Source: a virus | Lineage: Duplodnaviria > Caudoviricetes | Strand: one strand, 5' to 3' | Virus record (IMG/VR): IMGVR_UViG_2898902220_000006 | Coordinates: 20,854-84,853 of that record | Length of the DNA: 64,000 bases | Part shown: piece by piece, positions 8,661 to 28,411 of the stretch | Layout of the letters: every line of letters starts with the position of its first letter | How positions within the stretch are numbered: the first letter of the stretch is position 1 | The notes under the pieces: model-generated | Database searches by the model: none | The model's input: only the letters and a program-made list of their open reading frames with translations | What the model was told of the DNA's origin: nothing | Program-made: the position numbers and the translations under genes

Positions 8661-8661
8661 A

Positions 8662-9570
8662 TTGACTACTCAACTACAAGAAGCAAATACAAACGTAGTT
8701 ATCGGCAATTTCACGCAAAGGGAACTAGATACACTCAAAGCGACTGTTGCGAAAGGAACAACTAATGAACAATTCTCCTTGTTCGTTCAAACGTGCGTAA
8801 GTTCTGGATTAAACCCTTTTCTTAATCAAATATATTGCATCGTTTATAGAGGGCGTGACGGGGCAGTAATGAGTATGCAAATTGCTGTTGAGGGTATTGT
8901 TTCCCTAGCTAAAAGAAACCCACATTACAAGGGCTTTATAGCTTCTGAGGTTAAAGAACAAGATGAGTTTGAAATTAACGTAGCGGCAGGAGAAGTAACA
9001 CACAAAATCACAGCCATGCAACGTGGTAAAACGATCGGGGCCTATTGCGTAGCTTACCGTGAGGGGGCGCCGAACGTTGCGGTTGTAATAACCATAGACC
9101 AAATCGAACATTTAATTAAAGGTCGCAATAAAGATATGTGGCGCGATTACTTTGACGACATGATCGTAAAGCATGCAATGAAACGAGCGTTCAAACGTCA
9201 ATTCGGGATCGAAATTGCTGAAACTGAAAATGTTCCTTCTGAAACCTCTATCGAGAACATGCCCGAATATGAACCTACACAACGCGAAGTTGTGGTTGAG
9301 GTGAACGGTGAAGAAGTTAGAAATAAGAGTGAAAATGTACCTTCCTCTAATGCCGAAGATGAAGAAAGTCATATTAAGCGGATCAAGAAGGAATTAAAAC
9401 ATAAGTTTGAAGTGTTAGGTATTAGCGGAAAAGAAGAAATAAACGCATATATGCAACAGCATTGCCCAATCAAAGGAAATGCCCCTACTCTAGCAGAGCT
9501 AACGGGCCTACTAAAAATCATGGATAAGCACATTGCTGAAATGAACAGCAACGATGATGAACTGGAATAG
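8662..9570 (+). CDS. recT: RecT-family single-strand annealing protein
   Basis: GLNPFLNQIY, GA.GAY and M..KH..KRA.K motifs; lies between the ATPase and nuclease genes. Confidence 0.82.
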   Translation: MTTQLQEANTNVVIGNFTQRELDTLKATVAKGTTNEQFSLFVQTCVSSGLNPFLNQIYCIVYRGRDGAVMSMQIAVEGIVSLAKRNPHYKGFIASEVKEQDEFEINVAAGEVTHKITAMQRGKTIGAYCVAYREGAPNVAVVITIDQIEHLIKGRNKDMWRDYFDDMIVKHAMKRAFKRQFGIEIAETENVPSETSIENMPEYEPTQREVVVEVNGEEVRNKSENVPSSNAEDEESHIKRIKKELKHKFEVLGISGKEEINAYMQQHCPIKGNAPTLAELTGLLKIMDKHIAEMNSNDDELE

Positions 9571-9579
9571 GAGAAATCA

Positions 9580-10335
9580 ATGAAAGTCAAAATCCTTGCA
9601 TCCGGTTCAAATGGAAACTGCATAGCGATTCAATACGGTGATAAATGCATTCTTATTGATGCCGGAGTTGCCAAAACAAAGATAGAAAAGGCTCTACTAG
9701 AACAGGGCATCTACCCTACTAATGTACAAGCCATATTCATTACACACGCACATGGGGATCATGTAAAAGGTTTGCCATTTGCGAACAAGTACAAAATTCC
9801 AGTGTTCGCCACTTATGGCGAATGGAGAAGTATATCAAAAGTGGATATGGAGCTACAAAAACCAATAGAAACGATCTATGGGGCATACCAAGTAATTAAT
9901 ATACATGGGGCGAGTGTTTGCCCCTTCCCTACTCATCACGATGCATACGAGCCTGTAGGGTTCTCAATCATACATGACCAGATGAAAGTTAGTGTGTGCT
10001 TGGATACTGGCAAGGTGGATAAGGAAATGTTAGAAGCTATGAGAGATTCAGACATTTACATTATTGAGTCGAATCATGAACCAGAAATGGTTGAAGTAGG
10101 TCAATATCCTAGCAACGTAAAAGAACGTATCTTGTCAGACAATGGACATTTAAGCAACGAGCAAACAGCGAGGGCATTACAGCGATTAGTACAGGGGAAT
10201 GGTGAACATATCTATCTGGTGCATTTATCTAGTAAAAATAATTTGCCGTCTCTAGCAGAGCTAACAGTAAAACAATTTTTGAAGCAAAAGGGCCTAGTAA
10301 TAGGAGAACAATATAAAGTAGAGGTGATTTCATGA
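9580..10335 (+). CDS. MBL-fold metallo-hydrolase (nuclease)
   Basis: [25 protein letters not shown] and GHLSN motifs. Confidence 0.9.
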
Positions 10336-10748
10336 ATAAGGTATTTCTTATTGGACGACTTACTAAAGACCCTGAGTTGAGATATACGTCCAATGGTGTT
10401 GCAGTAGCTACATTTACCCTAGCCATTGATCGGAATTTTACTGGTACTGATGGGCGGAAAGAAGCGGATTTCATTGGGATTGTGGCTTGGAAGCAACTAG
10501 CCGATCTATGCGCTAACTATCTGGCTAAAGGTAGACAATGCGCCATTGACGGACGAATACAGACTAGAAGCTATGACAACAAGGAAGGCAAGAGAGTTTA
10601 TGTCACGGAGATTGTAGCAGAGCATGTGCAGTTTTTAGGGGGAAGCAAAGGCGAACAAGATAGACAGGGAACCGCAGCGCAACCAAGCGATCCATTTTAT
10701 AGCCCAGGTCAGAAAGTTCAAATAAAAGATGAAGATTTACCGTTCTAA
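10332..10748 (+). CDS. ssb: Single-stranded DNA-binding protein
   Basis: [18 protein letters not shown]; acidic DEDLPF tail. Confidence 0.95.
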
Positions 10749-10773
10749 TAAAAATTATGGGAGATGTTTATAT

Positions 10774-11250
10774 ATGAGAATTCCGATAGATTGTAGAGCA
10801 TTACAAAGTGAAATCAATAGACTTTCTGACAAGGTAAAAACTCTTACACAGGAAAAAGAATTGCTACAAGGTGAGATTAACAACCTAACTCTTTCTAAAA
10901 AATTAAAATTGCCACGCGAGGTTGCAGAAGCGATTGAGCAGGAGTTCGGGAAAGCATCAAATGATAAAAAACAATGGGGATTTTTCAACATCGTTGTTTG
11001 CCGACCAATAAGCTTAAATCACAATGCACGGATCATAAAAAGTTATTTTCATCCTGATAAATATATCGACCTTGCAACTGCTCTAGTAGCAGGCTATACG
11101 ATCGAAGAAACCAAGGAAGAACGGATAAAACGTGGGATACAAGCAATTTATAACCAATGGACTAGAGAACCATCTATCAATGATGAAGAAGACGGAAAGG
11201 ACTTAGGTCAACGAGTCTATACTCTGGTAAAAAGGGAATTGAATCTATAA
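10774..11250 (+). CDS. Phage protein, DUF1642-like
   Basis: LPREVAEAIE...ALVAGYTIE pattern; start moved to the ATG at 10774. Confidence 0.55.
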   Translation: MRIPIDCRALQSEINRLSDKVKTLTQEKELLQGEINNLTLSKKLKLPREVAEAIEQEFGKASNDKKQWGFFNIVVCRPISLNHNARIIKSYFHPDKYIDLATALVAGYTIEETKEERIKRGIQAIYNQWTREPSINDEEDGKDLGQRVYTLVKRELNL

Positions 11251-11262
11251 GTTGGTGGTTTA

Positions 11263-12042
11263 ATGTCTACCCAATTAGAAGATGGTTTTACAAGAATTGC
11301 AAATAAAATACTTGAAGATATTAGTAAGATCAGTTTGAACGGCACTCAATTTAGAATTGTTCTCACGGTGTGGAGATTTACCTACGGCTTTCAGAGAAAG
11401 GAACACGAGTTATCAATAGCTTTCTTAGTGAAATCTACAGAAATTGCTAGGGGACAGATTGACCGTGAGCTTACCGCACTGATTGAACGCAAAATATTAA
11501 CAGTCGTTCGAACTGGTCGAAGGGGGTCAAGAGTGATTATGTTTAACAAAAATCGTGAGGAATGGAATGACCGTCCTCCAATCCGAGGACTGTCCTCTAA
11601 AACGAGGACGGAACTGTCCGCTAATTCGAGGACACTACTGTCCTCTAAAACGAGGAACAAGAAAGAAAGTATTAAAGAAAAAGATAAAGATAATATGTCG
11701 TGTTATGAAGAAATCATTTCTTATCTTAACGAAAAAGCTGGTAAAAGATTTTCTCATAAATCACCTGCAAATAGAAAATTAATCAATGGCAGACTAGCTG
11801 AAGATCGTACAATTGATGATTTTAAATATGTGATTGATGTTAAGTGCAATCATTGGCTAGGTAATCCAGAAATGGAGGACTATTTACGACCAGCTACTTT
11901 GTTTGCCCAAAAGAACTTTGAAAACTATTTAAACCAGAAGGTAAAACAACAAGTCGTTAAACAAGACCCTCGAGACAAAGAAACGGATTTCCAAAGATGG
12001 GTACAAGGAGGTAATGATCCTGATGAATTTGATTGGTCATGA
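11263..12042 (+). CDS. Phage replication initiator (lambda O-like N-terminus, conserved phage C-terminal domain)
   Basis: LEDGFTRIAN.ILE; YLRPATLF...FENYLN; internal iterons. Confidence 0.88.
   Translation: MSTQLEDGFTRIANKILEDISKISLNGTQFRIVLTVWRFTYGFQRKEHELSIAFLVKSTEIARGQIDRELTALIERKILTVVRTGRRGSRVIMFNKNREEWNDRPPIRGLSSKTRTELSANSRTLLSSKTRNKKESIKEKDKDNMSCYEEIISYLNEKAGKRFSHKSPANRKLINGRLAEDRTIDDFKYVIDVKCNHWLGNPEMEDYLRPATLFAQKNFENYLNQKVKQQVVKQDPRDKETDFQRWVQGGNDPDEFDWS
11573..11657. repeat. Four 18-bp iteron-like repeats (probable origin of prophage 1)
   Basis: GTCCTCCAATCCGAGGAC (11573), GTCCTCTAAAACGAGGAC (11592), GTCCGCTAATTCGAGGAC (11616), GTCCTCTAAAACGAGGAA (11640). Confidence 0.8.
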
Positions 12043-13354
12043 TACTAATATCGACATGATGGCGGAACAAAGTGTACTGGGTGCTGTGCTGTTAAAGCAA
12101 AGTGTTTTAGATAAAATAACTTTCCTAGAACCCCGGGATTTTTCAATAGACAGCCACCAAAAACTATTTGAAGTTATGCGGTATATGGATTCAAACAGTA
12201 TTCCAATTGATATCGTGACTGTCACAACTGAATATCTCAATTTAAATAGACTAGCAGACCCTAGCTTTGTAACGTATATCACAGAGCTTGCAGGGGCTTG
12301 CCCTACTGCTTCAAACGTAAAACACTACGCAAAGCTCCTTAAATCAAAATCGATCCGTAGAAGAGGTACAGAAGCATTGTATGAGGCTTCCAAACTTTCG
12401 GAAAAAAACTTTGAATCGGATGAAGAATACTACTCAGCAATAGAGGCGGCAGTTTCTAACCTTAGACCAAGTAATACAGGTAAGATGCAACATGTAAAAG
12501 ATTTTCGAGATGAATATTTTGAGCATTTGAACAAGGAACCTGACTCTTTGAAAACTGGATTCATAGGATTTGATGATTGGGCAGGCGGTGTACGTAGAGG
12601 ATGGTTGTACGTTCTTGCAGGTCGACCGTCCGCAGGTAAAACAGCTAAGTTGTTACAGATGTTGCAGAACATAGCGGAACAGAAAAAAGGTGCTGTTTTT
12701 CTTTGGTCGCAAGAAATGGGACGTACTCAAATTATGGACAGGCTAGTTTCAAGTACATGTGAAATTAACTTCAAACGTTTCATAAGCAAAAAGTTTGAAC
12801 CGGGTGATATAGAGAAAATAAATCTAGCTTACAATTACCTAGAAAAACTACCAATTTACGTAGAAGATAGTTCGGGTGTAACGATCGACGAAGTGCATTC
12901 AATCGCTAAGAATTTTGTTAGAAAAGGCGGTAAGCTTGCGGCTGTTGCGGTTGATTACCTTCAAATCATGTCCATTCCTCAGAAAAATGGCGAACGTAGA
13001 GATCAAGCAATTGGACGTGTGACGACAACGGCAAAACGGATAGCAAGGGAGCTAGATTGTTGCTTTATCATGCTATCGCAAATGACAAGGGACTCTGAAA
13101 ATGCCGCCAAGCCGCAACTATCGCATTTGAAAGAATCTAGCAGTATTGAGCAAGATGCTGACGTTGTAGAGTTCCTATGGCACGATTCAAATGATGTAGA
13201 CACGGGCGGTAAGGTCATACAGTCATTCATCGCAAAAGGACGGGATACGGGCATAAACGACTTTAGACTCTTGTTCAAAGGATGGATTCAGCGGTTCTCA
13301 TGGCTTCCTAACTTAACAGGGGGCGGAAATCATGGAAAGAAAAATAAAAAATGA
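12014..13354 (+). CDS. DnaB-like replicative helicase
   Basis: AEQSVLGAVL, AGRPSAGKT Walker A, VDYLQIM, LSQ.TR, LKESSSIEQDADVV. Confidence 0.93.
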   Translation: MILMNLIGHDTNIDMMAEQSVLGAVLLKQSVLDKITFLEPRDFSIDSHQKLFEVMRYMDSNSIPIDIVTVTTEYLNLNRLADPSFVTYITELAGACPTASNVKHYAKLLKSKSIRRRGTEALYEASKLSEKNFESDEEYYSAIEAAVSNLRPSNTGKMQHVKDFRDEYFEHLNKEPDSLKTGFIGFDDWAGGVRRGWLYVLAGRPSAGKTAKLLQMLQNIAEQKKGAVFLWSQEMGRTQIMDRLVSSTCEINFKRFISKKFEPGDIEKINLAYNYLEKLPIYVEDSSGVTIDEVHSIAKNFVRKGGKLAAVAVDYLQIMSIPQKNGERRDQAIGRVTTTAKRIARELDCCFIMLSQMTRDSENAAKPQLSHLKESSSIEQDADVVEFLWHDSNDVDTGGKVIQSFIAKGRDTGINDFRLLFKGWIQRFSWLPNLTGGGNHGKKNKK

Positions 13355-13743
13355 TGAGCAGTTTATGAAATCAGTAGAATGGCTAGTAGAAAAAGCGTAT
13401 CAAATAGAACACCCCCTAATGGATGAGAAGACAAAAGTCGAGCTGATTGCCAAGTACGACTATGTAAGTGAGAGGGTTATCGAATATCGGAAACGCGACC
13501 TAGATAAGCTGCTTTATCCAACAGAGAAAGTACAGAAAGTGAATTTATCCGATTGGTTAAATGAATAGGAGGAATAACGTGTCTGTAAGTTCCAAAAAGG
13601 CCCATAAACCTAGAAAAAATCATCCGTGGCGAAATGATTTAATGATTCACAAAAAAGTAAGTGACTTTGTTACTCTTTCAAATTCAGTTGGCAGAACGAA
13701 TATAAATGCTATAGGTGGCGGTAGACCATCTTATATGAAATAA
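13332..13743 (+). CDS. Two small hypothetical phage proteins (13332-13568; 13561-13743)
   Basis: Overlapping, co-oriented ORFs within the early operon. Confidence 0.6.
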
Positions 13744-13825
13744 GAGATAGCCACTAATAAGGGCGTAGCTAAAAAAAATGTTCAATAATATTTGAACTAT
13801 AATACAAAATATAGGAGATAAGATA

Positions 13826-14353
13826 ATGAGATTTGTTGGAATTGACCCATCAACAAAGACCGGATTAGTTGCTTTAGATGAGCAAGGAAAAGTATTACGA
13901 GCCAAGGAGATTACTGGGGCTGGAAGTAAAGACCCTTACCGTATGCGTACCATGATTGAAGATGTAATGTGCCACATTCACCCGTGCGACTTGATCTGCA
14001 TAGAGGGATTCGGGTACGCCTCACAGCAAGCCGTACAGAACGGTGGGATTGGTTGGGGAATCCGAATGGCACTTGATAAACATGGAATTGACTATAAAGA
14101 CGTAGCTCCTAATACCGTCAAAAGTTTTGTCGGCGTTACGGGATGGACTGGAGAAAAAGGCAGTAAAGTCCGTTTGCAAGGTAAGGCAAAAAAAGATGCG
14201 GTTGCTGTAGCTGTCGAGGAAATGTTCGGATATAGTCATGCAAGTGATAACGTCATTGACGCTTATGTATTAGCCAGAATTGCCCTTCATCAATATCGGG
14301 AGTCCGTAAGAAAGTACAACCTACGCCTTTTAAATAAAAAATATACCAACTAA
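13826..14353 (+). CDS. RuvC-like Holliday junction resolvase
   Basis: FVGIDPS.KTG, IEGFGY and N..DAY.LARI catalytic pattern. Confidence 0.82.
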   Translation: MRFVGIDPSTKTGLVALDEQGKVLRAKEITGAGSKDPYRMRTMIEDVMCHIHPCDLICIEGFGYASQQAVQNGGIGWGIRMALDKHGIDYKDVAPNTVKSFVGVTGWTGEKGSKVRLQGKAKKDAVAVAVEEMFGYSHASDNVIDAYVLARIALHQYRESVRKYNLRLLNKKYTN

Positions 14354-14367
14354 GGAGAGAACAATAT

Positions 14368-14778
14368 ATGAAAACATTAGTTAAAGCTACATTCCTTGAT
14401 TTTAATGCAGGTTCAAAAAAGGACATTTTGAAATTTGAGATTAAAGGCGATCTTACAGATGCACAAATTGTCAATTTGCATAAATTAAAAGGCAATATTG
14501 TGTTCCTGAATATTTCAAGCGACCAGCTCGATATTTACGATTACGACAGTGAATCAAACGTACATGAAGGCATTTGGTACAACGTAGAATCAGGCGGAAA
14601 TGTTGAGGTAACAGAAGATCAATTGACCATTGAAGACGTTCCTACTCCAGTAGATGAGTTTAACAAGGCAAAAGAAGCTCATGACAATGAAGAAAAGGAA
14701 CCGCTAGAAGAGACGGAACAAGAAGAATCTAACGTAGATTCTACAAATAATGAAAATGACGATGATTTACCATTCTAA
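14368..14778 (+). CDS. Hypothetical acidic phage protein ending DDDLPF
   Basis: RBS AAGGAG; acidic SSB-like tail. Confidence 0.7.
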   Translation: MKTLVKATFLDFNAGSKKDILKFEIKGDLTDAQIVNLHKLKGNIVFLNISSDQLDIYDYDSESNVHEGIWYNVESGGNVEVTEDQLTIEDVPTPVDEFNKAKEAHDNEEKEPLEETEQEESNVDSTNNENDDDLPF

Positions 14779-14844
14779 ATTGTTCATGGCCCCTGCTACT
14801 AACAGGGGCAAAATCTTTCAATCCAGGTATTAAGGGGAGATACG

Positions 14845-15300
14845 ATGCAGATGAGCTTTTTTGCAGAAATAGACCAGAAAGAAACTCATAGGGCTGTAGA
14901 GTCTGCATTTGAACAATATCGGTTAAATAAATATTTGATGTTTGAAGAGCGAGAAGCAAGTACAACAGCGGGATATACAGAAAGGTTTCATGGGCCAACG
15001 AATGTAACCAGCGATCAAACTGCTTCTATAGCAATACACAATGTTGATACTCTGAACGCAAGAAAGGCTTATTGTAGTTTAGTGGAACGTGCAGTAAATA
15101 ACTTGCCACGTAAGGAACGTTATTTAATAGAAGAAAGGTACATGTGTAGAGAAGCAGAGTATATCACTGACTACAATGTATATAATTTTAAGTTTGATCC
15201 ACCCATTAGTAAGGACACCTACAGAAAAATTCGAAAGAAAGCATTTCGCAAACTAGCTATGGTATTAAATATCCAAGTCGAAAAAAGTTCTTCATTATAA
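14845..15300 (+). CDS. ArpU-family late-gene transcriptional regulator
   Basis: S..TA.Y...HG.TN..SDQTA; LI..RY...Y..D..VY; Y..IR.KAF..LA motifs. Confidence 0.85.
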   Translation: MQMSFFAEIDQKETHRAVESAFEQYRLNKYLMFEEREASTTAGYTERFHGPTNVTSDQTASIAIHNVDTLNARKAYCSLVERAVNNLPRKERYLIEERYMCREAEYITDYNVYNFKFDPPISKDTYRKIRKKAFRKLAMVLNIQVEKSSSL

Positions 15301-15359
15301 CGGTTAAGTCTAGAAGGCGATTTGAATAAAATATACAACTAGAAAAAAGGGGGAGTTAG

Positions 15360-15563
15360 ATGCATTCTGTTAAGTCAGAAAATCCAGCAGTTTTAAAAGA
15401 CATTAGAGAACGGGTTACGCTATGGATTGATGGTAAACATGGCAGAATTGGCATTATAGCCCCTAAAGAAAAACCAACACGCAAAGAATGGATTGAACTA
15501 CATAGGGAAATAGCAAGCATAATAGTTCAATCAGCCAAGAGAAAAAATGAGGCCTCCGAATAG
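15360..15563 (+). CDS. Hypothetical protein, last phage gene before the att junction
   Basis: RBS GGGGGAG; followed by a terminator. Confidence 0.65.
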   Translation: MHSVKSENPAVLKDIRERVTLWIDGKHGRIGIIAPKEKPTRKEWIELHREIASIIVQSAKRKNEASE

Positions 15564-15579
15564 GGGCCTCTTCTTTTTT
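15549..15579 (+). terminator. Intrinsic terminator at the right end of prophage 1
   Basis: GAGGCC...GGCCTC hairpin plus T tract. Confidence 0.75.
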
Positions 15580-15632
15580 GTTCAGTATATTTATATCGCA
15601 AGAAATGCATGACTATAGGATTTTTATTTTAG

Positions 15633-16688
15633 GTGTATGAGATAATAACGGATGAGCTTATAATTGCTCATACAAACGAAACGGAATACAAAACCTTTAT
15701 CGGAAATAAAAAGAATGAAGCATTACAGTCTAGAATGATTGTCATGCCAGTTCCTTACAATCTGCGGGTAGCAGAAGAAGAAAAGATTTATGATAAATTA
15801 ATTAAGCAATCTGATTTAGGCCATGTTCATATTGCTCCACATGCGCTATATACGGCGGCCATTTTTTCTATTTTAACCCGTTTAAAAGAGTCCAAGAAAC
15901 AAGGCGCTGATCTATTAAAGAAATTACGTTTGTATAATGGTGAATCGGTTGAAGGCTTCAAAGGCTCTGACATCGAGGAATTACGTAATGAGCATGTGGA
16001 TGAGGGAATGTCTGGAATTGATCCTCGTTATGTCATAAACCGGATTTCCAGTGCACTCATTCGTCGTGATACTGAGTCTATTAATGCCTTGGATATTTTG
16101 CGGGCATTAAAAGAAGGGCTCGATCAGCATGCTTCCATTAGCAAGGAACAGCGAGAGCGTTACTTAAATTTCATCTCTATCGCACGTAAAGAGTACGATG
16201 AGATTGCGAAAAAAGAAGTTCAGAAGGCTTTTGTGTACAGCTATGAGGAATCAGCTAAAACCATGATGGATAATTATCTGGATAATGTTGAGGCGTATTG
16301 CAACTCTAACCGCTTACGTGATCCAGTAACAGGTGAAGAATTGGAACCAGATGAACGTCTCATGCGGTCTATTGAAGAGCAGATTGGTATTTCCGAAAAT
16401 GCCAAACGTGCATTCCGTGAAGAGATTCTTATTCGAATATCAGCTTATGCGCGTAAAGGTAAACGTTTTGACTACAACACGCATGATCGTCTGCGGGAAG
16501 CGATTGAGAAAAAATTATTTGCAGATTTAAAAGATGTGGTTAAAATAACAACCTCCACGAAAACACCAGATGAGCATCAATTGAAGAAAGTGAATGAAGT
16601 GACACGTCGTTTGGTTGAAGAACACGGATATACGCCAATTTCAGCAAATGAACTGCTGCGTTATGTGGGTAGTTTGCTGAATCGATAG
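15633..16688 (+). pseudogene. prkA: 3' part of the split sporulation gene prkA (YeaG family)
   Basis: DELIIAHTNETEY...NKKNEALQSRMIVMPVPYNL, EGMSGIDPRYVINRISSAL and [12 protein letters not shown] are PrkA-like; the N-terminal ATPase part is missing and the first codons (VYEIIT) come from the phage side. Confidence 0.88.
15634..15674. other. Putative attR of prophage 1 inside prkA
   Basis: TGTATGAG / CTCATACA 8-bp inverted repeats centred at 15654 (GATGA), where similarity to PrkA (DELI.AHTNE) begins. Confidence 0.6.
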
Positions 16689-16696
16689 GAGGGGGA

Positions 16697-17761
16697 ATGA
16701 TGAACGACTCCTCGTTTATCGTCTCCAAAGAAGACTGGTCTCTGCATCGCAAAGGTCATCAGGACCAGAGCAGACATCAGGAAAAGGTAAAAGAGGCGAT
16801 CAAGAAAAACCTGTCTGATTTAGTAAGTGAAGAAAACATCATTATGTCTAATGGGCGAGAAATTATTAAAATACCAATCAGATCGCTGGATGAGTATCGC
16901 TTCCGTTACAATTTTAATAAAGGCCAGCATACAGGCCAAGGTCAAGGGAATTCCAAGATAGGAGATGTGGTAGCTAAAGACGGTGAACCGGCTGATGCTA
17001 CTGCGGGCCAAGGTCAAGGAGCTGGCGATCAACCTGGTAACGATTATTATGAAGCGGAGATTACAGTAGAAGAGTTGCAGGAAATGCTGTTTGCTGAGTT
17101 GGAGTTGCCTAATCTCCAAACGAAAGACGAACAGAAAATTACCATAGAAGATATTCAGTTTAATGATGTTCGGAAAAAAGGTTTAATGGGTAACATTGAT
17201 AAAAAGCGTACCTTGATGTCTGCAATTCGCCGAAATGCACTAGCTGGGTATGACGATCTGGAGCTAGGTATCTCTATGGATGACTTGCGATTTAAAACAT
17301 GGGAAGAGATTGTGAAGCCACATTCCAATGCCGTAATTTTGGCAATGATGGATACGAGTGGATCTATGGGAGTTTTTGAAAAATACGTAGCCCGCAGCTT
17401 TTTCTTTTGGATGCTTCGCTTTTTGCGTACCAAGTATGAAAAGGTGGAGATCGCCTTCATCGCGCATCATACGGAAGCGAAGGAAGTGACGGAGGATGCG
17501 TTCTTTTCTAAAGGAGAGAGCGGCGGAACCATCTGCTCATCTGCCTATCGAAAAGCTTTGGAAATTATCGACGCACGATATCCGGTAAGCCAATACAATA
17601 TTTATCCGTTTCATTTTTCCGATGGGGATAACCTGACTTCGGATAATGAACGGTGCGTGAAATTGGTGAAAGAATTGATGGAGAGGTCTAATATGTTTGG
17701 GTATGGTGAAGTGAATCAGTATAACTCACTGTTGTATACACAAAACGGTTCCACTATGTAG
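16697..17761 (+). pseudogene. yhbH: 5' part of the split sporulation gene yhbH (YeaH/UPF0229 family)
   Basis: [37 protein letters not shown] and FHFSDGDN motifs; after GYGEVNQYN the frame runs into non-family sequence and meets the integrase stop. Confidence 0.9.
17696..17744. other. Putative attL of prophage 2 inside yhbH
   Basis: 49-bp imperfect palindrome centred at 17720: TTTGGGTAT/ATACACAAA (8 of 9 pair) and AGTGA/TCACT. Confidence 0.7.
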
Positions 17762-19328
17762 GGAACCGTAAGATAATTTCAATTTCAAATTGCTCTGGTT
17801 TCTTCCACTCTTTCTTGCGAATATAGATTACCTTCTCAATAATGGTTTTGAGGAGGTTATTTTTTTGCTCTGGATCATCTAAGGATTTGTAAGCTTGAAT
17901 AACCTTGTGAATTTTAGGGATAACCTGAGCTTGCATTTTAAGTCGGCTTTTCAATTGATTGATTTCGTTCTGAGACTTTTCTATTTCTGCCTCAAGTTGT
18001 TTTATCTTATCAGAGATGGTTTTATGTCGTTGTAAGAATAACTCTTCTGTATAAATTTTTCTTTCTAACATTTCGAATGTTGTTTCTCTCATACTGTGTT
18101 GCTCTTTCAATTCGGTAGTAGCTTTTTGAATATAATTAGTTAGTGCTGACATACGTTCTTCATTCTTATCTTTTCGTTTATTACGACTACTCAGTTCTGT
18201 TTGTGTCATTTCTTTTTGTTCCACTAACTCTTCTAAGCCAGCTATGATTTTTTCTTCAACCAAGTAAGTTACAATACCTTTCTGTATTGTCTTACATGCA
18301 ACATTGGTACATCTTATTTGGGGATTAGGTCTTTCAGGATTAACAAGCTGTGCTAATGTGCGCCCGCATACTCCACATCTTGCGATACCAGCAAGAGGAT
18401 TAGATACAGATGAGCCTTCTTTTCTAGAGACTCGAAAACGCCCTGTGTGAGCTTCATTAGCTTTAATAAATAATTCCTGACTAACTATTGGTTCATGCGC
18501 ATTGTCATGTCTAGTCCATAATTCTGGGGGGAGTCTTTTAGTGACTCTTTTTCCGTTACGTTTCGTATGTTTCTTCCTGCCCCATACAATGTGACCGATA
18601 TAGACTTCATTTTTAACTAAATAACTTATGGTAGAGTGTTCCCAGATATCTCTTTTCGAGGGAGCCTTATACCCTGCCTGCATAAGATACTCTATGACTT
18701 TAAAACGTCCATATCCTTCAGCCAGTAGCTCGAAGATTTTTTTAACAACTGGAGCTTCTTCGGGATGAGGATAGAGCTTTAGGTTTTCGTCTCTTAAATA
18801 TCCATAAGGGGGGGTTTTAGCGATATGTCGACCATCTTTTACTGCACGCCGCCGACCACCTTGCAAACGCTTATTAATCTGTTTTAACTCTTCACGAGCG
18901 ATGATAGACTTCACACCAAACAATAGTTCTGCACCTTCGGCGTTGCAGTCGATCACTTCTGAGGGGGTAATAATCAGTGTTTCAGAATATTTAAAAGCTC
19001 TGAATATCGTTCCTGCATCGATCATATCTCCACGCCCAAGACGATCTAAGTCCATCACTATTACGCCATCGCATTCTCCATCTTCAACGTTACGCAGCAT
19101 CTCTTGTGCTTCTGGTCTTTCCGATAGAAACTCACCTGATACAATTTCCTCAAAGATTTTTATAACATTATGCTGCTCTCTTCGTACAAGCTCCATTAGC
19201 TCACGTTTGTGCTTATCAAGAGTATCGAAGGGGATGCCAGTTTCAAGGGCCTTTTTTTCTTCTTCGATGTCTTTTCGGCTTTTGCGTAGATGGATAATCA
19301 CGTCAAGGTTTGTAGGTCTACTCATCAA
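17754..19328 (-). CDS. Large serine recombinase (integrase)
   Basis: HLRKSR catalytic Ser motif, [13 protein letters not shown] recombinase domain, CGVCG...C...C zinc ribbon, coiled coil. Confidence 0.95.
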
Positions 19329-19500
19329 ATCACCTCACCATCGATTATACACAAGTTTTGAAATGTACACATTGTGGGTTGAACGAAAGTAGAGAATAGT
19401 AAAATTTTTCATGTTATAATAACCAAGTACAATAGAATCGGCTCTCTCAATGGCGATCCTGGCTCATCCCCATGTCACAAATAGCAAGGGGGTGACGCTC

Positions 19501-19593
19501 ATGTCCGTATATGAAGCTCTTATGGTAATGTTTGCTTTCGGAACATTTATCATTGCTTTAATTGGACTATTTGTCAAAATGACAAAAAAGTAA
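19501..19593 (+). CDS. Type I toxin-like small membrane peptide, 30 aa (putative holin-like toxin family; not in ORF track)
   Basis: MSVYEALMVMFAFGTFIIALIGLFVKMTKK*; RBS GGGGGTGA; single TM with basic tail. Confidence 0.85.
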   Translation: MSVYEALMVMFAFGTFIIALIGLFVKMTKK

Positions 19594-19722
19594 GATCGCC
19601 ATTGAGCCGTGGAAAGCTAGACGATCTTACTCCGTGATTTGAGCCAATCCCATTGAGGGATGGTCTATTGTACAAACCGTAGGTGCTCTAACACCTGCGG
19701 TCTTTTTTATTATATGCGCTTG
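19584..19722 (-). ncRNA. Predicted cis-antisense antitoxin RNA
   Basis: Minus-strand extended -10 TG-G-TATTAT (19730-19738); terminator GTAAGATCG/CGATCTTAC (19590-19630) followed by a U run; overlaps the toxin mRNA 3' region. Ends approximate. Confidence 0.55.
19676..19708 (+). terminator. Terminator of the toxin mRNA
   Basis: ACCGTAGGTG / CACCTGCGGT hairpin plus T tract. Confidence 0.8.
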
Positions 19723-19914
19723 TACTTCTATAATACCATATTATAGGCATTCTGAAACAATATAAATGATTAGAGGAGGTAAAAAATTAATGTTTTATGT
19801 GTAGAAAGAAAAGAGAATGAAGAGTAAAATGTTAATGAAGTGAAAAAAAGATACTGAACGAAAGGAGAAAAGTTATAAGAGAGATTTTACTACTGATAGA
19901 TTGAGGTAATATGA

Positions 19915-20583
19915 ATGGACACTTTCATGTACATAATTTTAGGTAGCATCGATATTCTGGCGATATTAGTCCTGGCGTTCAAGATATTTCGCTTCCCTCT
20001 GGCGTGGAAAAAAGAGTTTTTAATCATATCAATCACAGCATCATTAATATCATACTTGAATAGGGTAATACTTGATATTCCAAATGTTGACAGTTGGTTG
20101 CAATATTCGATAATTATTTTGTTTTTCAGATATATGTTAAAGGTGAAGTTATTTGACAGTATAGTAGTAGCAACTGTAGGATATTTAGGCTTTAACATCG
20201 TACAATACAGTACATACGTAGTTATGCTCTGGACAGGGATAGTATCGTTTGCTGATGGACAAGCACTAACAAACTTGGGTACTTACCTAATACAGTTAAC
20301 AACTCATCTATTTATGTTTGGTGTAGCCTGGTTAATCTACAGATACAATCATGGATTTTCATTTATTATGGTCCCGCCACATGATGTCCATATAAAGATT
20401 AAAATGACACCTTTAAAATATCTAATAATGACAATGGTGTTTCTATCATCAACAACAATTTTAGTTGTAACAAATTGGATGCTTGCATTCAATGGAAACC
20501 CAACTTGGTTAGTGCCTGTTTTCATAATCTATTTAATTATCCTTATCAAGTTATTGGAGAAAAAGGAAATGACCAATGATTGA
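19915..20583 (+). CDS. Polytopic membrane protein resembling the AgrC sensor module, with no kinase domain
   Basis: About six hydrophobic segments; first gene of the agrB operon; ends with no HisKA/HATPase motifs. Confidence 0.7.
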   Translation: MDTFMYIILGSIDILAILVLAFKIFRFPLAWKKEFLIISITASLISYLNRVILDIPNVDSWLQYSIIILFFRYMLKVKLFDSIVVATVGYLGFNIVQYSTYVVMLWTGIVSFADGQALTNLGTYLIQLTTHLFMFGVAWLIYRYNHGFSFIMVPPHDVHIKIKMTPLKYLIMTMVFLSSTTILVVTNWMLAFNGNPTWLVPVFIIYLIILIKLLEKKEMTND

Positions 20584-21088
20584 AAAACTATCCTATTCTC
20601 TTGCGGTTAAGATTCACGATGCCAATCCCGATAAAAAAGAGAGTGTGGATGTCTTGTCTTATTCATTGTCCATTACCCTTAATTATTTACTAGTATTATT
20701 TTTTTCTTTATTGATCGGTTACTTAACAAATGAATTTGTTGACACAATTATTTCAATGGTGAGTTTTATTGCTCTACGTATTTTTTCAAAGGGGTATCAT
20801 GCAAAATCATTAACTACATGCTTTATTTTGACAACAGCGATCATAGCATTGATTCCTCATGTTCCAATGCAAGATTATCTGAGTGTTACTAATATAGTAA
20901 ACGTTTTTCTGGTGCTATTTCTCGCGCCAAATGGTAGATTCGAGGAAGAAGTAATCCCTCAAAAAAGAGTTTATTTACTAAAAGGAATTTCATTGATTAT
21001 AGTCCTATCCAACTTTATTATCTCGTCGCATATTGTGGCTCTATCTTTTTTTGCGCAATCATTATTATTACTACCTAAAAGGAGGTGA
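20576..21088 (+). CDS. agrB: AgrB-family peptide-processing membrane protease
   Basis: FIALRIFSKGYHAKSLTTC (R..SGG.H...C catalytic pattern); LAP in a later TM segment. Confidence 0.9.
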   Translation: MIEKLSYSLAVKIHDANPDKKESVDVLSYSLSITLNYLLVLFFSLLIGYLTNEFVDTIISMVSFIALRIFSKGYHAKSLTTCFILTTAIIALIPHVPMQDYLSVTNIVNVFLVLFLAPNGRFEEEVIPQKRVYLLKGISLIIVLSNFIISSHIVALSFFAQSLLLLPKRR

Positions 21089-21093
21089 GGACA

Positions 21094-21213
21094 ATGAATA
21101 AACAGTTCGCGAAAACAATTTCAAAGGGATTAGGTACTTTGGGTAAGGTTTATACAAAGCTTGCCAAAGTTACAATCGGTAGCCCGGTTGTACCTAAAGA
21201 ATTAAGAAAGTAA
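21094..21213 (+). CDS. agrD: AgrD-like autoinducer propeptide, 39 aa (not in ORF track)
   Basis: RBS AGGAGGTGA; MNKQFAKTISKGLGTLGKVYTKLAKVTIGSPVVPKELRK*: amphipathic leader and P..PKEL tail. Confidence 0.82.
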   Translation: MNKQFAKTISKGLGTLGKVYTKLAKVTIGSPVVPKELRK

Positions 21214-21223
21214 GAGTAGAGCT

Positions 21224-21592
21224 ATGGGGAATTCGCCAAAGTTTTTTGGAATAACGCCGTCGGGGAATAGAAGCGATAGATCAGCGTATGTAGAACTCTC
21301 AATAGATGACTTTAATTTCGTTAATCGGTATAACGATACAACCATTGCATACAATACGAATAAAGGGTTATTCTTACCTGTGAACTCGTTGGAAGGTATG
21401 TTCATTTGTCTTGAAAAATACGGATTCACAAACTTAGACTCAACGAATGTCACAAATCTTAAAAATATAGAAAGTATAGATGTTAGTCCATATGGGATCG
21501 GCGTCCACTTTCCAAACGGAATGCATACAACTGCATCTCGGATCAAGTATAAACAATTTTTAAAAGACTTACCGAAAAGGCCACCTAAATAA
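21224..21592 (+). CDS. Stand-alone LytTR DNA-binding protein (no receiver domain)
   Basis: GF..LD.TNVTNLKNI..ID...V.F......SR pattern; only 122 aa. Confidence 0.8.
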   Translation: MGNSPKFFGITPSGNRSDRSAYVELSIDDFNFVNRYNDTTIAYNTNKGLFLPVNSLEGMFICLEKYGFTNLDSTNVTNLKNIESIDVSPYGIGVHFPNGMHTTASRIKYKQFLKDLPKRPPK

Positions 21593-21604
21593 GGTGGTTT
21601 TTTT
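21580..21604 (+). terminator. Terminator closing the agr-like operon
   Basis: GCCACCT / AGGTGGT hairpin plus T tract. Confidence 0.8.
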
Positions 21605-21865
21605 GTGTCTTTTATTCAATGTTTTAAGTGGGGTATTATACATCAGGATAATGCAAAAGTAAAGTTAAATTGACCTAGGGGTCTATTGACACTTAACAAT
21701 CGCAAGATTCGACAAAAAACTAACTTTTTAGATGGTACATTTTTTAAAGAAATAAAAATTCATTCATTATCACTTTAAATAAATTAAAATTACGAATCAT
21801 TACTCAGCGTTCTATCTGTAAGAGCAAGAATGTAGCGATTTTATTTTCCGCTGGAGGTGCGTGTT

Positions 21866-21997
21866 ATGGATAAAACCAAAAAAGTAAATATACCTTTTAC
21901 TACAAAAGATGTTGAAATACTTAAGGATATTCTTACGAATAAAAAGCAGTTAGCAAAAACGTATAAAGAAAAACTAAAAGCCATCCTTTCATCTTAA
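21866..21997 (+). CDS. Small basic protein, 43 aa, convergent on the repressor (not in ORF track)
   Basis: RBS GGAGG; MDKTKKVNIPFTTKDVEILKDILTNKKQLAKTYKEKLKAILSS*; shares a hairpin (AAAAGCCATCCT/AGGATGGCTTT) with the repressor end. Confidence 0.6.
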   Translation: MDKTKKVNIPFTTKDVEILKDILTNKKQLAKTYKEKLKAILSS

Positions 21998-22010
21998 AAA
22001 GGATGGCTTT

Positions 22011-22394
22011 CTAATTATCTATCTCTGATTTAAAGGCTTCTAGAAGCTCTTTTACTAAATGCTTTTTGTTTGGAGGTAGGTTACGGATTAGATTGATAAT
22101 ATTTTTGTCTTCTTCAGAAAGAGTCGGGTCATTAATGGTAGAGATAAATGGATCAGTTATATCTGTACTGCATTTTTCATTAGTTCTTCCTAATAAGTAG
22201 TCAACAGAAACATTAAAGAAATCAGCTATTTTTTCTAATCGTTCATGCCTTGGCAAACTTTGATCTGATGATTCTAATCTTCTGATTGTAGACTCGGGTA
22301 TGTCTAAAGCTCTAGCTAATTCTTCTTGTGTTATCATTTTTTCTGCTCTTAATTCTTTTAAACGTTTTTTAAAAATCATAGATATCACGCTCAT
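22011..22394 (-). CDS. Prophage 2 CI-like XRE repressor (switch A)
   Basis: RLKELRAEKMITQEELARAL HTH; VSVDYLLGRT. Confidence 0.9.
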   Translation of the reverse strand: MSVISMIFKKRLKELRAEKMITQEELARALDIPESTIRRLESSDQSLPRHERLEKIADFFNVSVDYLLGRTNEKCSTDITDPFISTINDPTLSEEDKNIINLIRNLPPNKKHLVKELLEAFKSEIDN

Positions 22395-22420
22395 TTCTTG
22401 ACTTGATTATACACAAAAAC

Positions 22421-22514
22421 GCTCATTTAATAAACGTTCAATAATTGAACAAAAAGATGTTGACATGCTCATAATTTGAACGTATACTAGCATTATAAAG
22501 TTCATTAAACGAGC
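22421..22514. promoter_or_regulatory. Switch A control region: four 15-bp palindromic operators and a sigmaA promoter
   Basis: GCTCATTTAATAAAC (22421), GTTCAATAATTGAAC (22436), GCTCATAATTTGAAC (22467), GTTCATTAAACGAGC (22500); TTGACA-17bp-TATACT at 22460-22488. Confidence 0.8.
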
Positions 22515-22523
22515 TAAAGGAGG

Positions 22524-22769
22524 TTGAACATGAAAAAACTTATACCCTTAGAAAATTTAATTAAAACGCGTCTAGGTTTAAAGTTGACGCAAGGTGAGTT
22601 AGCTAAAAGAGCTGATTTATCTAGAGCAATGCTATCTAACATAGAACGAGGATATGCACTGCCATCCCTACCTGTTGCTTACCGTATTTCAAAAGTATTA
22701 AAAAAACCAATTGAATATATTTTTTTTAATGAAAACGCTCGAAATATGAGCGGAAAACGATCAGCATAA
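22524..22769 (+). CDS. Cro-like XRE regulator (switch A)
   Basis: LTQGELAKRADLSRAMLSNIERG HTH. Confidence 0.88.
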   Translation: MNMKKLIPLENLIKTRLGLKLTQGELAKRADLSRAMLSNIERGYALPSLPVAYRISKVLKKPIEYIFFNENARNMSGKRSA

Positions 22770-22822
22770 GAGTGATTACATGGACGAGCAGAACAAGGAG
22801 AGATGAGCCGCCAGTAAGACGG

Positions 22823-23047
22823 CTATTGATTAGTTAAAACACGCTTAATCAGCTTAATATCCGTTTCAAGAGCTTCAATTTTACTAGTAGCCTCGTTTAA
22901 ATTAGCTTCTTGCTCAGTGTTGTGAGCAACTTGTGTATAGATGGTATCAAGTTTTTGTTTAATCTCGTTTACATCATCTTTGGTAGCCATTGTTGACTTA
23001 ATGATTGTGAGTTCTTCAAGGATTTGTTTAAGAAGCTTTTCATTCAT
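22823..23047 (-). CDS. Small coiled-coil hypothetical protein
   Basis: Heptad pattern; coupled to the upstream XRE gene. Confidence 0.65.
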   Translation of the reverse strand: MNEKLLKQILEELTIIKSTMATKDDVNEIKQKLDTIYTQVAHNTEQEANLNEATSKIEALETDIKLIKRVLTNQ

Positions 23048-23360
23048 TAGAATTCACCCTTCCCAAAATGGTTTGGAGCATATCAGTAACTTTCTTCCGT
23101 TCCTCTGGAGTTAGCTTCTTTGCTGTCTCGATGAGTTGAAGTAGGTCAGTTGGCACAGCTGGTTCTTTACCAGCAAAGAAATCATATAGCGTGACTCCAA
23201 GAGCAGTACAGATAACCGAAAGTGCTTCTAAGTCAATTCGTCGTTGCCCGTTTTCGAGTTTACTTATTGCAGACTGTGACATGCCTGTTAGTTTCGCAAG
23301 TTCTACAGTCGACAGGCCAGATAGTTGTCTTAATTCTTTTAATCTATCAGAAAAAATCAT
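23040..23360 (-). CDS. XRE repressor-like regulator (switch B)
   Basis: LSTVELAKLTGMSQSAISKLENG HTH. Confidence 0.88.
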   Translation of the reverse strand: MIFSDRLKELRQLSGLSTVELAKLTGMSQSAISKLENGQRRIDLEALSVICTALGVTLYDFFAGKEPAVPTDLLQLIETAKKLTPEERKKVTDMLQTILGRVNSNE

Positions 23361-23379
23361 TGGTCATCTCTCCGGATTT

Positions 23380-23505
23380 ATTCCATTTTGGAATTTAGTT
23401 AGTTCTAGTTTAAGTGGCTGGAACTGATTGAACAAGGGATGACTAAAAATTTCATAATAATATTCTTTAATGGACTAGACAAACTAATCCAAAATAGAAT
23501 ATAAT
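23380..23505. promoter_or_regulatory. Switch B control region with a different 15-bp operator type
   Basis: ATTCCATTTTGGAAT (23380), ATTCTTTAATGGACT (23462), AATCCAAAATAGAAT (23486); TAGACA-18bp-TATAAT. Confidence 0.6.
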
Positions 23506-23537
23506 CGTAATAAGACCAACTATGAAAAGTCAAGGAG

Positions 23538-23753
23538 GTGAGATTAATGACTGGACAAAGGCTAAAACTTATTCGGGAAAGTAAAAACATTACACAGCAT
23601 GAGCTTGCTGTAAGAACAGGGTTCACTCAGTCAAAAATCAGTAAACTTGAACGAGGTTCCATTAGATTAAAACTTGATGACTTAATATTGATCGCTGGTA
23701 CTCTAAGCGTCCCAATAACAGACTTGCTTGATGAAGAAAAACAATCAGCATAG
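23538..23753 (+). CDS. Cro-like XRE regulator (switch B)
   Basis: ITQHELAVRTGFTQSKISKLERG HTH. Confidence 0.85.
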   Translation: MRLMTGQRLKLIRESKNITQHELAVRTGFTQSKISKLERGSIRLKLDDLILIAGTLSVPITDLLDEEKQSA

Positions 23754-23912
23754 GAGTGATAAGAATGTCAATTACAACTCAACAAGAGTTAGAAAAAACT
23801 ATTGTTATTTTATGCGGATGGGTCAACGAGCGAGTTACAGGTACATGCTCGGAAGAACAGAGAGAAATCCTTCCGAGCGTAATACAAAGTATTTCAGGTT
23901 TAGTCGAGGCAA

Positions 23913-24098
23913 TTAAAAGCTAACTGGCCTTTCGCTTCCCTCTTTGACAGTTTGAAGGGTTGTTTTATAAAACTTTGAAATTTCTTCTGCTCTTTTTTCA
24001 TTATCTTCGTGTAAATCTGTAGATTTATGTAACCGAATGTAACCTGCATTAAGAGCAGCAATAACAATATCACGAGTTATTTCTTCAGGTTTAGCCAT
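23913..24098 (-). CDS. Small hypothetical protein with its own promoter
   Basis: RBS GGAGGTGA; minus-strand TG-G-TAAAAT upstream near 24140-24148. Confidence 0.7.
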   Translation of the reverse strand: MAKPEEITRDIVIAALNAGYIRLHKSTDLHEDNEKRAEEISKFYKTTLQTVKEGSERPVSF

Positions 24099-24185
24099 TT
24101 AAATCACCTCCTCTCATGGTTATGAAGTCGGACAACTCCATTTTACCAGAAGGAGGAAATTTAATGTAGTTAAAGGAGCAAGCAA

Positions 24186-24677
24186 ATGTCGATATCATCT
24201 AGGGTTGTCCCATTAACATCACCACATATAAATAGGTCAAGAGGTGATGAGAGAATGGAAAAATTCGGTCCTTGGTTCAAAGTGCTACGTGAGTCAAAAA
24301 AGATGACGGTTGATGAACTATCTAACATCTCAGATGTAAGCATTGATTACATCACAGAGATGGAGGAGGAAGAAAGATTCCTGATCGAACCGGAAGCCTT
24401 CAGAAAGATAGCTCATGTTTTGAAAGTGGACTTTGTGGACTTGATTTCCAAAGCAAGCTTCTTAGCAAAAAGAGAAGATCGACCTTTATTTGTAAAACAA
24501 CATGGCTTAACAACCATAAAAATCAGATCTACTCTTCCGTTCATGACACCAGACGAAAGAGATAAATGGTACGACGATAATGCTGATTTACCAGAAGTGA
24601 AGAACTATCGTAGAGCTTTGGCTCAAGCAAACATTTATCTTCACGAACGAGATCAAAACAATGTATCTACAGCATAA
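24186..24677 (+). CDS. XRE-like HTH protein
   Basis: FGPWFKVLRESKKMTVDELSNISDVSIDYITEME. Confidence 0.75.
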   Translation: MSISSRVVPLTSPHINRSRGDERMEKFGPWFKVLRESKKMTVDELSNISDVSIDYITEMEEEERFLIEPEAFRKIAHVLKVDFVDLISKASFLAKREDRPLFVKQHGLTTIKIRSTLPFMTPDERDKWYDDNADLPEVKNYRRALAQANIYLHERDQNNVSTA

Positions 24678-24804
24678 ATGCCCAGACTGGGCATGGTGGA
24701 CAAGCTTACAAAAATTCCCCCAGGTGAGCAGCCCGAGGGAAAGCATGAAAGATGAACACAATTTAATTGTAATGCCTGATGAAGGCGAAAGGGAGACTAA
24801 TTTC

Positions 24805-25404
24805 ATGGCGATTCAACCGAGTTTTATGTGGAATTTCGGGGAGTTTTTACGACATTTCAGGGTTCATGGAGGTAATCATGACTTTTCAACGCAGGTCAAA
24901 CTTGCCAAGCACCTGCGTATTGATCCAAAGAAAATTTCAAAAGTGGAATGCGAAAACGAAGGCATTGACATCGAGACAGCAGCCAAATGGTGCAAAGCAG
25001 TTGGATGGTACGAAGGGCTGGACCTCCTCTCAAGCAAGCTAGGTCTTGACCCTTTTGGTCTCATCCCTGTAAATCCAAAGCTTAATGAAAACGTACTGGC
25101 AGCGCTCAATAATCTACACACTCAGCTAACAGATGCATTACGTGCAGTGGAGAAATTGCAGGAAGAAGAACGTAAAGCTCAGCCAGCTATAGCAAGAGGA
25201 GTATATAAACCAAACAAAAACATGGTGATGTACAAAAAAGAAATTGCTGACTGCATCCCTGCTGTTAAAACATTCTTCTACGCTAATGAGCGACAAAACC
25301 GAATTGGAATGAAAGAAATAGGAGCCTTATGGAACCAGCAAGCTTTAGATGACCTAGTTGCAATGCCAAAGATTGATGAGTTTAGAGCACCAGTAGCTCT
25401 GTGA
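24805..25404 (+). CDS. XRE-HTH phage regulatory protein (start probably 24805)
   Basis: STQVKLAKHLRIDPKKISKVE HTH; RBS GGGAG. Confidence 0.65.
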   Translation: MAIQPSFMWNFGEFLRHFRVHGGNHDFSTQVKLAKHLRIDPKKISKVECENEGIDIETAAKWCKAVGWYEGLDLLSSKLGLDPFGLIPVNPKLNENVLAALNNLHTQLTDALRAVEKLQEEERKAQPAIARGVYKPNKNMVMYKKEIADCIPAVKTFFYANERQNRIGMKEIGALWNQQALDDLVAMPKIDEFRAPVAL

Positions 25405-27385: not shown

Positions 27386-27395
27386 GAGTGAGAAC

Positions 27396-28398: not shown

Positions 28399-28411
28399 GA
28401 TGGTGATAAAC

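Follow-up and report, generated by a model that had tools for sequence, protein, structure and literature searches.

Two Prophages in the Adjacent Sporulation Genes prkA and yhbH of a Brevibacillus Operon and the Predicted Exact Restoration of Both Genes

Introduction

The reversible splitting of sporulation genes by prophages is a classic example of phage-host co-option, yet few of the targets have been studied. Elements with large serine recombinases (LSRs) split sigK, spsM, kamA, spoVFB, spoVR and gerE and are excised in the mother cell, and growth-phase-dependent excision was described for yabG (PMC4191935, PMC5595907, PMC10747680, bioRxiv 10.1101/2021.11.22.469490). One gene may even need two rearrangements, as spsM of Bacillus subtilis 168 requires both skin and SPbeta (PMC4191935). 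The subject of this work is a stretch of 64,000 nucleotides (the window), positions 20854-84853 of the 84,853-base IMG/VR provirus record IMGVR_UViG_2898902220_000006, in which parts of the adjacent sporulation genes prkA and yhbH are found between two different prophages.

Of the known targets, spoVR, which is split by vrin, is the third partner of the PrkA/YhbH pathway, as in the yeaG-yeaH-ycgB module of Escherichia coli. In Listeria, the serine-integrase prophages phi10403S and A118 reside in the developmental gene comK, and their reversible excision could switch this gene on (active lysogeny); this case concerns another host process, and for the elements considered here excision without lysis is an analogy only. 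Reportedly, yhbH was already listed as a target by Abe in 2013. In the literature searched, prkA was not found to be named as an attachment target, and it appears to be an undescribed target of prophages splitting sporulation genes.

The control of prkA by sigmaE is known from the B. subtilis literature and is carried over here to Brevibacillus (PMC9512850). In B. subtilis, a prkA deletion mutant formed 7% spores versus 67%, and the Walker A motif of the protein was required (PMC9512850). Permanent loss of prkA would be costly because of this decrease.

Two Genes Cut by Two Phages

Judging by sequence, the host is a bacterium of the Brevibacillus laterosporus group, and two unrelated temperate phages are integrated in its prkA-yhbH sporulation operon. 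It is nearly certain that LSRs inserted two phages into these adjacent genes in such a way that exact restoration of both would be possible. Phage genes were found on both sides of the prkA and yhbH fragments by Pfam and PHROG scans and megablast. The original prediction that two different prophages split the two genes was borne out: the phages are unrelated, the yhbH-site LSR of the window is only 25% identical to the prkA-site LSR of a related provirus, L087, and both elements must leave for the whole operon to be regained. The main features are as follows.

1..15650, plus strand: left prophage, its right-hand 15.6 kb (Pfam/PHROG); its start, at contig base 1, precedes the window, and the record does not reach its recombinase end
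15634..15674, no strand: attachment site attR of the left prophage, core GATGA at 15651-15655 (alignment of attB, attL and attR)
15651..16688, plus strand: 3' part of prkA, codons ~291-636, Walker A region missing (homology to L004)
16697..17725, plus strand: 5' part of yhbH, 343 codons corresponding to codons 1-337 of the 381-codon reference (homology to L004)
17700..17750, no strand: attL of the right prophage, shared core AATCAGTATAAC at 17714-17725
17726..64000, plus strand: Jimmer-like prophage, right end incomplete (megablast to Jimmer1/2, Osiris and Powder; blastn, tblastx; Pfam)
17754..19325, minus strand: LSR of 523 amino acids, right prophage, convergent with the yhbH fragment (Pfam Resolvase and Recombinase)

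The closest intact operon found, used as the reference, is locus L004 of B. laterosporus MSSRFCCT15, with prkA of 635 and yhbH of 381 codons. DNA homology between this operon and the window spans exactly 15651-17725, with 88% identity, and stops abruptly at both ends. The open reading frame (ORF) 15633-16688 contains positions 271-356 of the 358 of Pfam AAA_PrkA and the entire PrkA C-terminal domain, while the ORF 16697-17761 matches positions 1-334 of the 371 of the equivalog model TIGR02877 (spore_yhbH). The sizes originally given for the fragments, about 345 codons of prkA and about 341 of yhbH, agree with the limits of prkA ~291-636 and yhbH 1-343 obtained from L004.

The frame of the prkA fragment opens at GTG 15633 within phage DNA and has no evident ribosome-binding site; with the Walker A region also absent, a working restart of the 3' half supplied by the phage was rejected. 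The frame of yhbH continues for 11 codons into phage DNA up to a stop at 17761. These codons, following the core, are unrelated to the gene, and a phage-supplied C-terminus was rejected for the right element.

Attachment Sites and Missing Gene Halves

At the prkA site, the common core GATGA was established by aligning attB (L004), attL (L087) and attR (the window). Within the left attR lies an 8-nucleotide inverted repeat, TGTATGAG/CTCATACA, at 15634-15641/15667-15674 with its centre at 15654. The arms deduced for attP, ATGAGATAATAACG ... CGGTTATTATCTCAT, form a near-perfect inverted repeat once joined, and such a dyad in the reconstructed site is a hallmark of LSR attP sequences. The comparison of the three sites predicts an intact, in-frame gene after excision, with the partner site taken from the relative L087 and not from this strain.

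At the yhbH site, a short non-coding stretch preceding the Jimmer1 integrase gp49 aligns with the phage side of the window, and the core AATCAGTATAAC is common to it and intact yhbH. A weaker 5-nucleotide dyad, AGTGA/TCACT, is centred at 17720. The original prediction had placed imperfect palindromes with centres at 15654 and 17720 on the breakpoints; both are real and coincide with the crossover cores deduced from the alignments. The sequence AAYCAGTATAA is common to attB, Jimmer1 attP, attL and attR, and the flanks are exchanged as site-specific recombination predicts. Here, attR was obtained from a complete Jimmer-like prophage in G005 and another in G050, which also provided attL. Since the four sequences share the core and swap their flanks, precise excision would restore yhbH in frame. 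A paper on the Jimmer cluster names neither attP nor the integration site (PMC4909266); by the comparison made here, the isolated Jimmer phages attach within yhbH.

An error of assembly or binning, with a piece of host DNA linking the contigs of two phages, is extremely improbable. The catalogue of proviruses behind the record was compiled automatically, and nothing specific speaks for such an error. The left junction was found to be identical, gene for gene, in the NCBI genome GCA_051713385.1 (L118), the right junction is identical in G005 and L098, and each breakpoint lies precisely at an att core that an isolated phage has as well. The recurrence of the junctions in these independent genomes argues against an artefact.

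Searches of the 84.8-kb record with tblastn and blastn found neither the 5' part of prkA nor the last 44 codons of yhbH, the reason being that the record is trimmed; look-ups of the exact proteins of its two end genes, made to reach the parent contig, gave no entry for either. The record is cut at gene boundaries, about 3 kb short on the left by the layout of L087 and G004 and about 2 kb short on the right by that of Jimmer1 and G005. The IMG/VR provirus L087 has 90% nucleotide identity to the first 7 kb of the left element. In L087, prkA codons 4-295 lie about 3 kb to the left of this part, and after them comes a convergent LSR of 546 amino acids. The record studied begins at the HNH gene and is therefore trimmed just inside the left recombinase. 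On the right, the window ends in a homologue of Jimmer1 gp45, which in Jimmer1 lies about 2 kb before attP, and the expected attR and 3' end of yhbH would therefore begin about 2 kb beyond the record. Thus, of the missing halves whose position and in-frame restoration had been put forward for checking, none is in the record; in relatives they are intact, and their rejoining in frame is predicted.

The absence of these halves from the record is also what would be expected if the split genes were dead relics, their other parts lost or decayed and the fragments left as pseudogene remains between prophages. This is very improbable. In addition to the trimming, both halves are present on one contig in seven relatives (G004, G005, G012, G018, G050, G054 and G056), and the window fragments are open, with 96-98% protein identity to intact alleles. 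The prkA fragment is 98% identical to intact PrkA in amino acids and has a ratio of nonsynonymous to synonymous substitution rates (dN/dS) of 0.016; for the yhbH fragment the ratio is 0.037. Generally, split pieces show dN/dS of 0.005-0.066, no higher than the 0.007-0.076 of intact alleles. The fragments in the window are, by these ratios, under strong purifying selection.

Recombinases and the SPbeta Comparison

The LSR abutting the yhbH breakpoint, part of the original prediction, was recognized as a 523-amino-acid enzyme (17754-19325, minus strand) with Resolvase and Recombinase domains and a likely catalytic serine within LRKSRKD. Its region is about 80% identical in nucleotides to the integrase region (gp49) of Jimmer1. 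Its nearest solved structure is SprA, a distant match (E 7.6e-48). The whole right element has 86-87% nucleotide identity to Jimmer1 and Jimmer2 (Jimmervirus), Osiris and Powder over 37% of a 24-kb query, starting from 10 bases past the breakpoint; in this comparison the structural region was covered in part. The likeness to these phages includes the integrase, whereas past the endolysin the prophage is a mosaic with other cargo, including a ParA-like ATPase.

The relatives of the left element carry an LSR of the SprA (YokA) family, the left element's own enzyme lying outside the record. The L087 enzyme has SprA as its best match among solved structures (PDB 9dxh, E 7e-137 over residues 10-539) and is 42.5% identical, over 97% of its length, to SprA (yokA) of SPBc2 and further SPbeta-like phages; among the isolated phages of the collection, none has a closer enzyme. 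LSRs of this kind at the prkA site stand in the same position in L087, L099 and G004 and are 91% identical to one another. At all sites, each example examined has its LSR directly beside the 5' gene fragment. In our opinion, the comparison with skin and SPbeta drawn originally is apt, since among both solved structures and isolated phages the prkA-site clade is closest to SprA.

The likeness to SPbeta in spsM of B. subtilis 168 (SprA, SprB) goes further. In both cases a sporulation gene of the mother cell is interrupted by an active temperate phage whose LSR, at one prophage end, is convergent with the 5' gene fragment, and at the other end a small gene comes last before the att site. In contrast to SPbeta, the left phage targets prkA and not spsM, has a size of about 40 kb, is unrelated to SPbeta in its other genes, shows no SprB homologue and has its LSR outside the record.

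Skin in sigK, vfbin in spoVFB, vrin in spoVR, gin in gerE and yin in yabG are likewise LSR elements inside sporulation genes with possible in-frame restoration, and degraded versions comparable to them occur among relatives of the present host (18 kb in G004, 15.5 kb in G005). Unlike these elements, both insertions in the window look like complete, inducible phages and not relics, a single operon has two neighbouring genes interrupted at the same time, and no sporulation-specific control element was found.

Would the Prophages Leave during Sporulation?

Summarizing the data, the following course of events may be proposed. A phage with an SprA-family recombinase, which matches no named isolate, has integrated at prkA codon ~291, and a Jimmer-like myovirus at yhbH codon ~337 of 381. 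Both cuts are clean and fall at a short core within an att site of dyad symmetry. The recombinase and a directionality factor would together excise each element precisely, with each gene rejoined in frame. Excision would take place upon phage induction and probably also in the terminally differentiating mother cell, as in SPbeta/spsM and skin/sigK. A lysogen undergoing sporulation would in this case keep producing PrkA and YhbH, and both prophages would pass into the spore. The LSR genes look constitutive, with sigmaA-like promoters, and control would rest with the directionality factor, for which the left phage offers orf67 as a candidate by position. The mechanism of insertion and the possibility of exact restoration may be regarded as established from the sequences, and developmental excision and the logic of an AND gate as plausible. 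The sporulation-linked excision of the two elements has, in our estimate, about an even chance, and the explanation taken as a whole, this step included, is evenly balanced too. An AND gate follows logically if both elements excise; this would be no sign of designed logic.

The resemblance of the prkA-site LSR clade to SprA, the enzyme of a sporulation-linked excision, counts for developmental excision. So do gene pieces that have stayed open and have low dN/dS even beside degraded elements which keep their LSR (G004, G005). The recurrence of such splits in 10 of 61 genomes of the family is a further point in favour. Intact halves, low dN/dS, LSR-keeping remnants, the lack of a second intact copy of the split gene in G004 and G005 and the cost of prkA loss in B. 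subtilis fit excision that matters to the host, as for skin, and are equally compatible with recent insertions that are tolerated.

Several points weigh against the proposed excision during sporulation. Both elements look fully functional and were possibly acquired recently; the intact halves and low dN/dS may reflect only a recent insertion, these ratios being unable to separate recent insertion from maintained function. The trimming of the record places the missing halves and the left recombinase of this strain outside it. In B. subtilis, prkA and yhbH mutants sporulate at a reduced level, and lysogens might tolerate the loss. A tblastn search of the contig and all related loci for an SprB homologue gave nothing significant, and a pattern search with the B. 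subtilis consensus revealed no sigmaE or sigmaK promoters before the LSR genes, orf67 or the genes next to the att sites.

These negative results also fit plain insertional inactivation, to which we assign somewhat less than an even chance. According to this explanation, the phages land safely at conserved sequences within genes that vegetative growth does not need, the lysogen lives with sporulation that is reduced or altered, and the elements leave on ordinary induction only. As a corollary, a second hit is free once the PrkA/YhbH pathway is broken, and stacking is cheap. The recombinase genes have promoters of the vegetative type: upstream of the right LSR there is a sigmaA-type extended -10 element, and the left-type LSR has TTTACA-16-TATAAT. 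This situation resembles that of sprA, where control lies with the directionality factor SprB (PMC4191935). Double occupancy, easier if extra insertions are free, is common in the B. laterosporus group (the window, L098, L099, L118 and G005), the effect of prkA loss in B. subtilis is not absolute (PMC9512850), and some relatives have intact yhbH beside a duplicated 3' end, so that other solutions exist. On the other hand, selection would act strongly against a tenfold drop in spore number in a spore-former of soil and insects, and degraded remnants retain an intact recombinase and gene halves. Furthermore, the elements of this kind tested in the papers cited here, namely skin, SPbeta, phi3T, vfbin, vrin, gin and yin, were excised in sporulation or in a growth-phase-dependent manner (PMC4191935, PMC5595907, PMC10747680, bioRxiv 10.1101/2021.11.22.469490).

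A Candidate Directionality Factor

For the left phage, the positional lead is a small gene at the end of the element.

15360..15563, plus strand: orf67, an ORF of 67 amino acids, the last gene before the left attR; candidate recombination directionality factor by position only

It lies about 90 bases from the GATGA core. The layout recalls SPbeta, where the gene of the Holliday-junction resolvase yotM is followed by sprB as the last gene and then by the att site, at the end opposite sprA. BLASTP gave no alignment between orf67 and SprB (YotN); what they share is position. The gene is retained at 73% identity in the degraded element of G004, and in G012 its position is occupied by an ORF of 97 amino acids with 30% identity (pairwise E 0.002). 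Only two close homologues were found in a large protein collection and none in five related provirus records, and co-occurrence of the gene with the recombinase clade is established for no more than G004 and G012. The segment GRIGIIAPKE resembles the CsrA signature in a search of solved structures (PDB 2jpp), too weakly, at E about 1, to be called. 

The Operon as a Landing Site

A search of IMG/VR with the 5' part of prkA yielded 17 provirus loci, with three sites in the gene, near codons 145, 291-296 and 511. All loci of site 291 have SprA-like LSRs, 45-91% identical to that of L087; LSRs of site 511 are 38% identical to the yhbH enzyme of the window, and the locus of site 145 has an LSR of a third type. 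Among their hosts are B. thermoruber-like and B. porteri-like strains as well as Bacillales that are less closely related. In yhbH, two sites were found, near codons 337 and 218. The operon is a repeatedly used landing place, and each of its sites has an LSR of its own.

Among 61 species genomes of Brevibacillaceae, one of the two genes is split by a large insert in 10. These are three with split prkA (G004, G011 and G012) and seven with split yhbH, at codon ~337 in G005, G018, G030, G034, G050 and G054 and at codon ~218 in G005 and G056. No second intact copy of the split gene was found in G004 or G005. Splits of prkA and yhbH together were observed in none of the 61 genomes versus about 0.3 expected, which is no evidence either way.

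Stacking of elements is, by the loci compared, frequent in the B. laterosporus group.

window: prkA-291 and yhbH-337 occupied
L098: prkA-145 and yhbH-337 occupied
L099: prkA-145 and prkA-291 occupied
L118: prkA-291 and yhbH-218 occupied
G005: yhbH-218 and yhbH-337 occupied, yhbH in three pieces

It may be supposed that in Brevibacillaceae the prkA-yhbH operon serves for docking at five or more att sites, with a separate LSR lineage for every site, and that two or three stacked elements, ranging from live phages to domesticated remnants, must all excise in the mother cell before the PrkA/YhbH pathway can work; we consider this unlikely. If true, sporulation efficiency would be a combinatorial read-out of the decisions of several prophages, each possibly with its own peptide signalling. 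Of peptide-sensing components, the domain scans showed here an AgrB domain and a helix-turn-helix (HTH) receptor only. One operon is hit at five places, and single, double and remnant states are available in culturable B. laterosporus strains, and the independence of excision among stacked elements could be studied here in a natural setting. The recombinases with their att pairs are new, well-defined candidates for genome-engineering toolkits.

Two remnants are particularly instructive. In G004 (L108, G004:C1:752001-772000), an 18.4-kb degraded derivative of the left phage occupies prkA codon ~291; nearly all structural and replication genes are gone and the gene of the ArpU-like late activator is frameshifted, with the 546-amino-acid LSR, orf67 and both prkA halves intact. 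In G005 (L110, 1440-16927), a 15.5-kb element at yhbH codon ~218 has an intact 510-amino-acid serine recombinase at its right end and non-phage cargo: a pyridoxal phosphate-dependent enzyme, an amino-acid permease, an EmrE-like transporter and a GntR regulator.

Some further features of these loci were recorded. The G004 element has an extra 1.35-kb insert between orf67 and attR, and that of G005 also holds remnants of an endolysin and an Alo-type receptor; this same G005 element also follows the cut yhbH in L118. L119 and L120 (GCA_022346405.1 and a Logan contig) are degraded copies of the left phage, with the ArpU-like gene and orf67 kept, the portal genes split and a gene of a LepA/EF-G-like GTPase, in three pieces, inserted among the phage genes. 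L099 retains only prkA codons 142-295, between two prophages. The prkA sites near codons 145 and 511 were seen in L097/L100 (one IMG/VR record), L098, L099, L101 and L102, in L089-L091 and in G011.

The 31-kb element L116 (G012) is flanked by a prkA 5' fragment up to codon ~331 and a 3' fragment from 289, an apparent overlap of about 40 codons, and its recombinase is only 35% identical to the L087 type. In G008 (G008:C1:3711880-3722838), a tandem duplication contains prkA codons 507-635 and a whole second yhbH, 7.8 kb from the intact operon; it is bounded at the position of the codon-511 attachment site, and G028 has a comparable fragment of prkA.

Intact yhbH together with an extra copy of its last ~50 codons was found in L121 (G058; 4978-5124) and L122 (G059; 14878-15024 and 1074-1178), as well as in G046, G048, G049 and G057. 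The att position at codon 332 is where the extra copies begin; those of G058 and G059 are located 1-3 kb downstream with no recombinase between. Such copies may have been left behind by elements that carried a substitute 3' end, or by a loss that was imprecise. In L094 (3323-4887), from a distant host, a recombinase 50% identical to the yhbH enzyme of the window starts 11 bases past an apparently full-length yhbH (codons 6-380), which suggests a related att site at or just past the yhbH stop codon.

Other Genes of the Two Prophages

Contig positions 1-36,500 look like a complete phage genome, with HNH, terminase, portal, capsid, tail and endolysin genes followed by switch and recombination/replication modules. 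The structural genes occupy contig 1-20 kb, and the switch is of the receptor-repressor-antirepressor type. No integrase was found in contig 1-36,500, and among isolated phages the left prophage had no megablast match. The genes of its part in the window are listed below.

130-903: GH25 endolysin
1679-2329, minus strand: M23 peptidase
3348-4697, minus strand: HTH receptor of 449 amino acids
5358-5789, minus strand: cI-like repressor
further genes: Rha antirepressor, SbcC-like ATPase, RecT, metallo-beta-lactamase (MBL) nuclease, single-stranded DNA-binding protein (SSB) and replication initiator
12014-13354: DnaB
13826-14353: RuvC-like resolvase
14845-15300: ArpU-like late activator

In the right prophage, the endolysin is followed at 60619-64000 by low-GC cargo on the minus strand, which encodes two unknown proteins, a ParA/MinD-like ATPase (61705-62562) and a Kelch-repeat protein.

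62819-64000, minus strand: Kelch protein, the last ORF of the window and the homologue of Jimmer1 gp45

Finally, a 43-nucleotide segment at 32765-32807 matches (86%) positions 7355-7397 of L004, about 200 bases downstream of yhbH, and is possibly a short repeated element.

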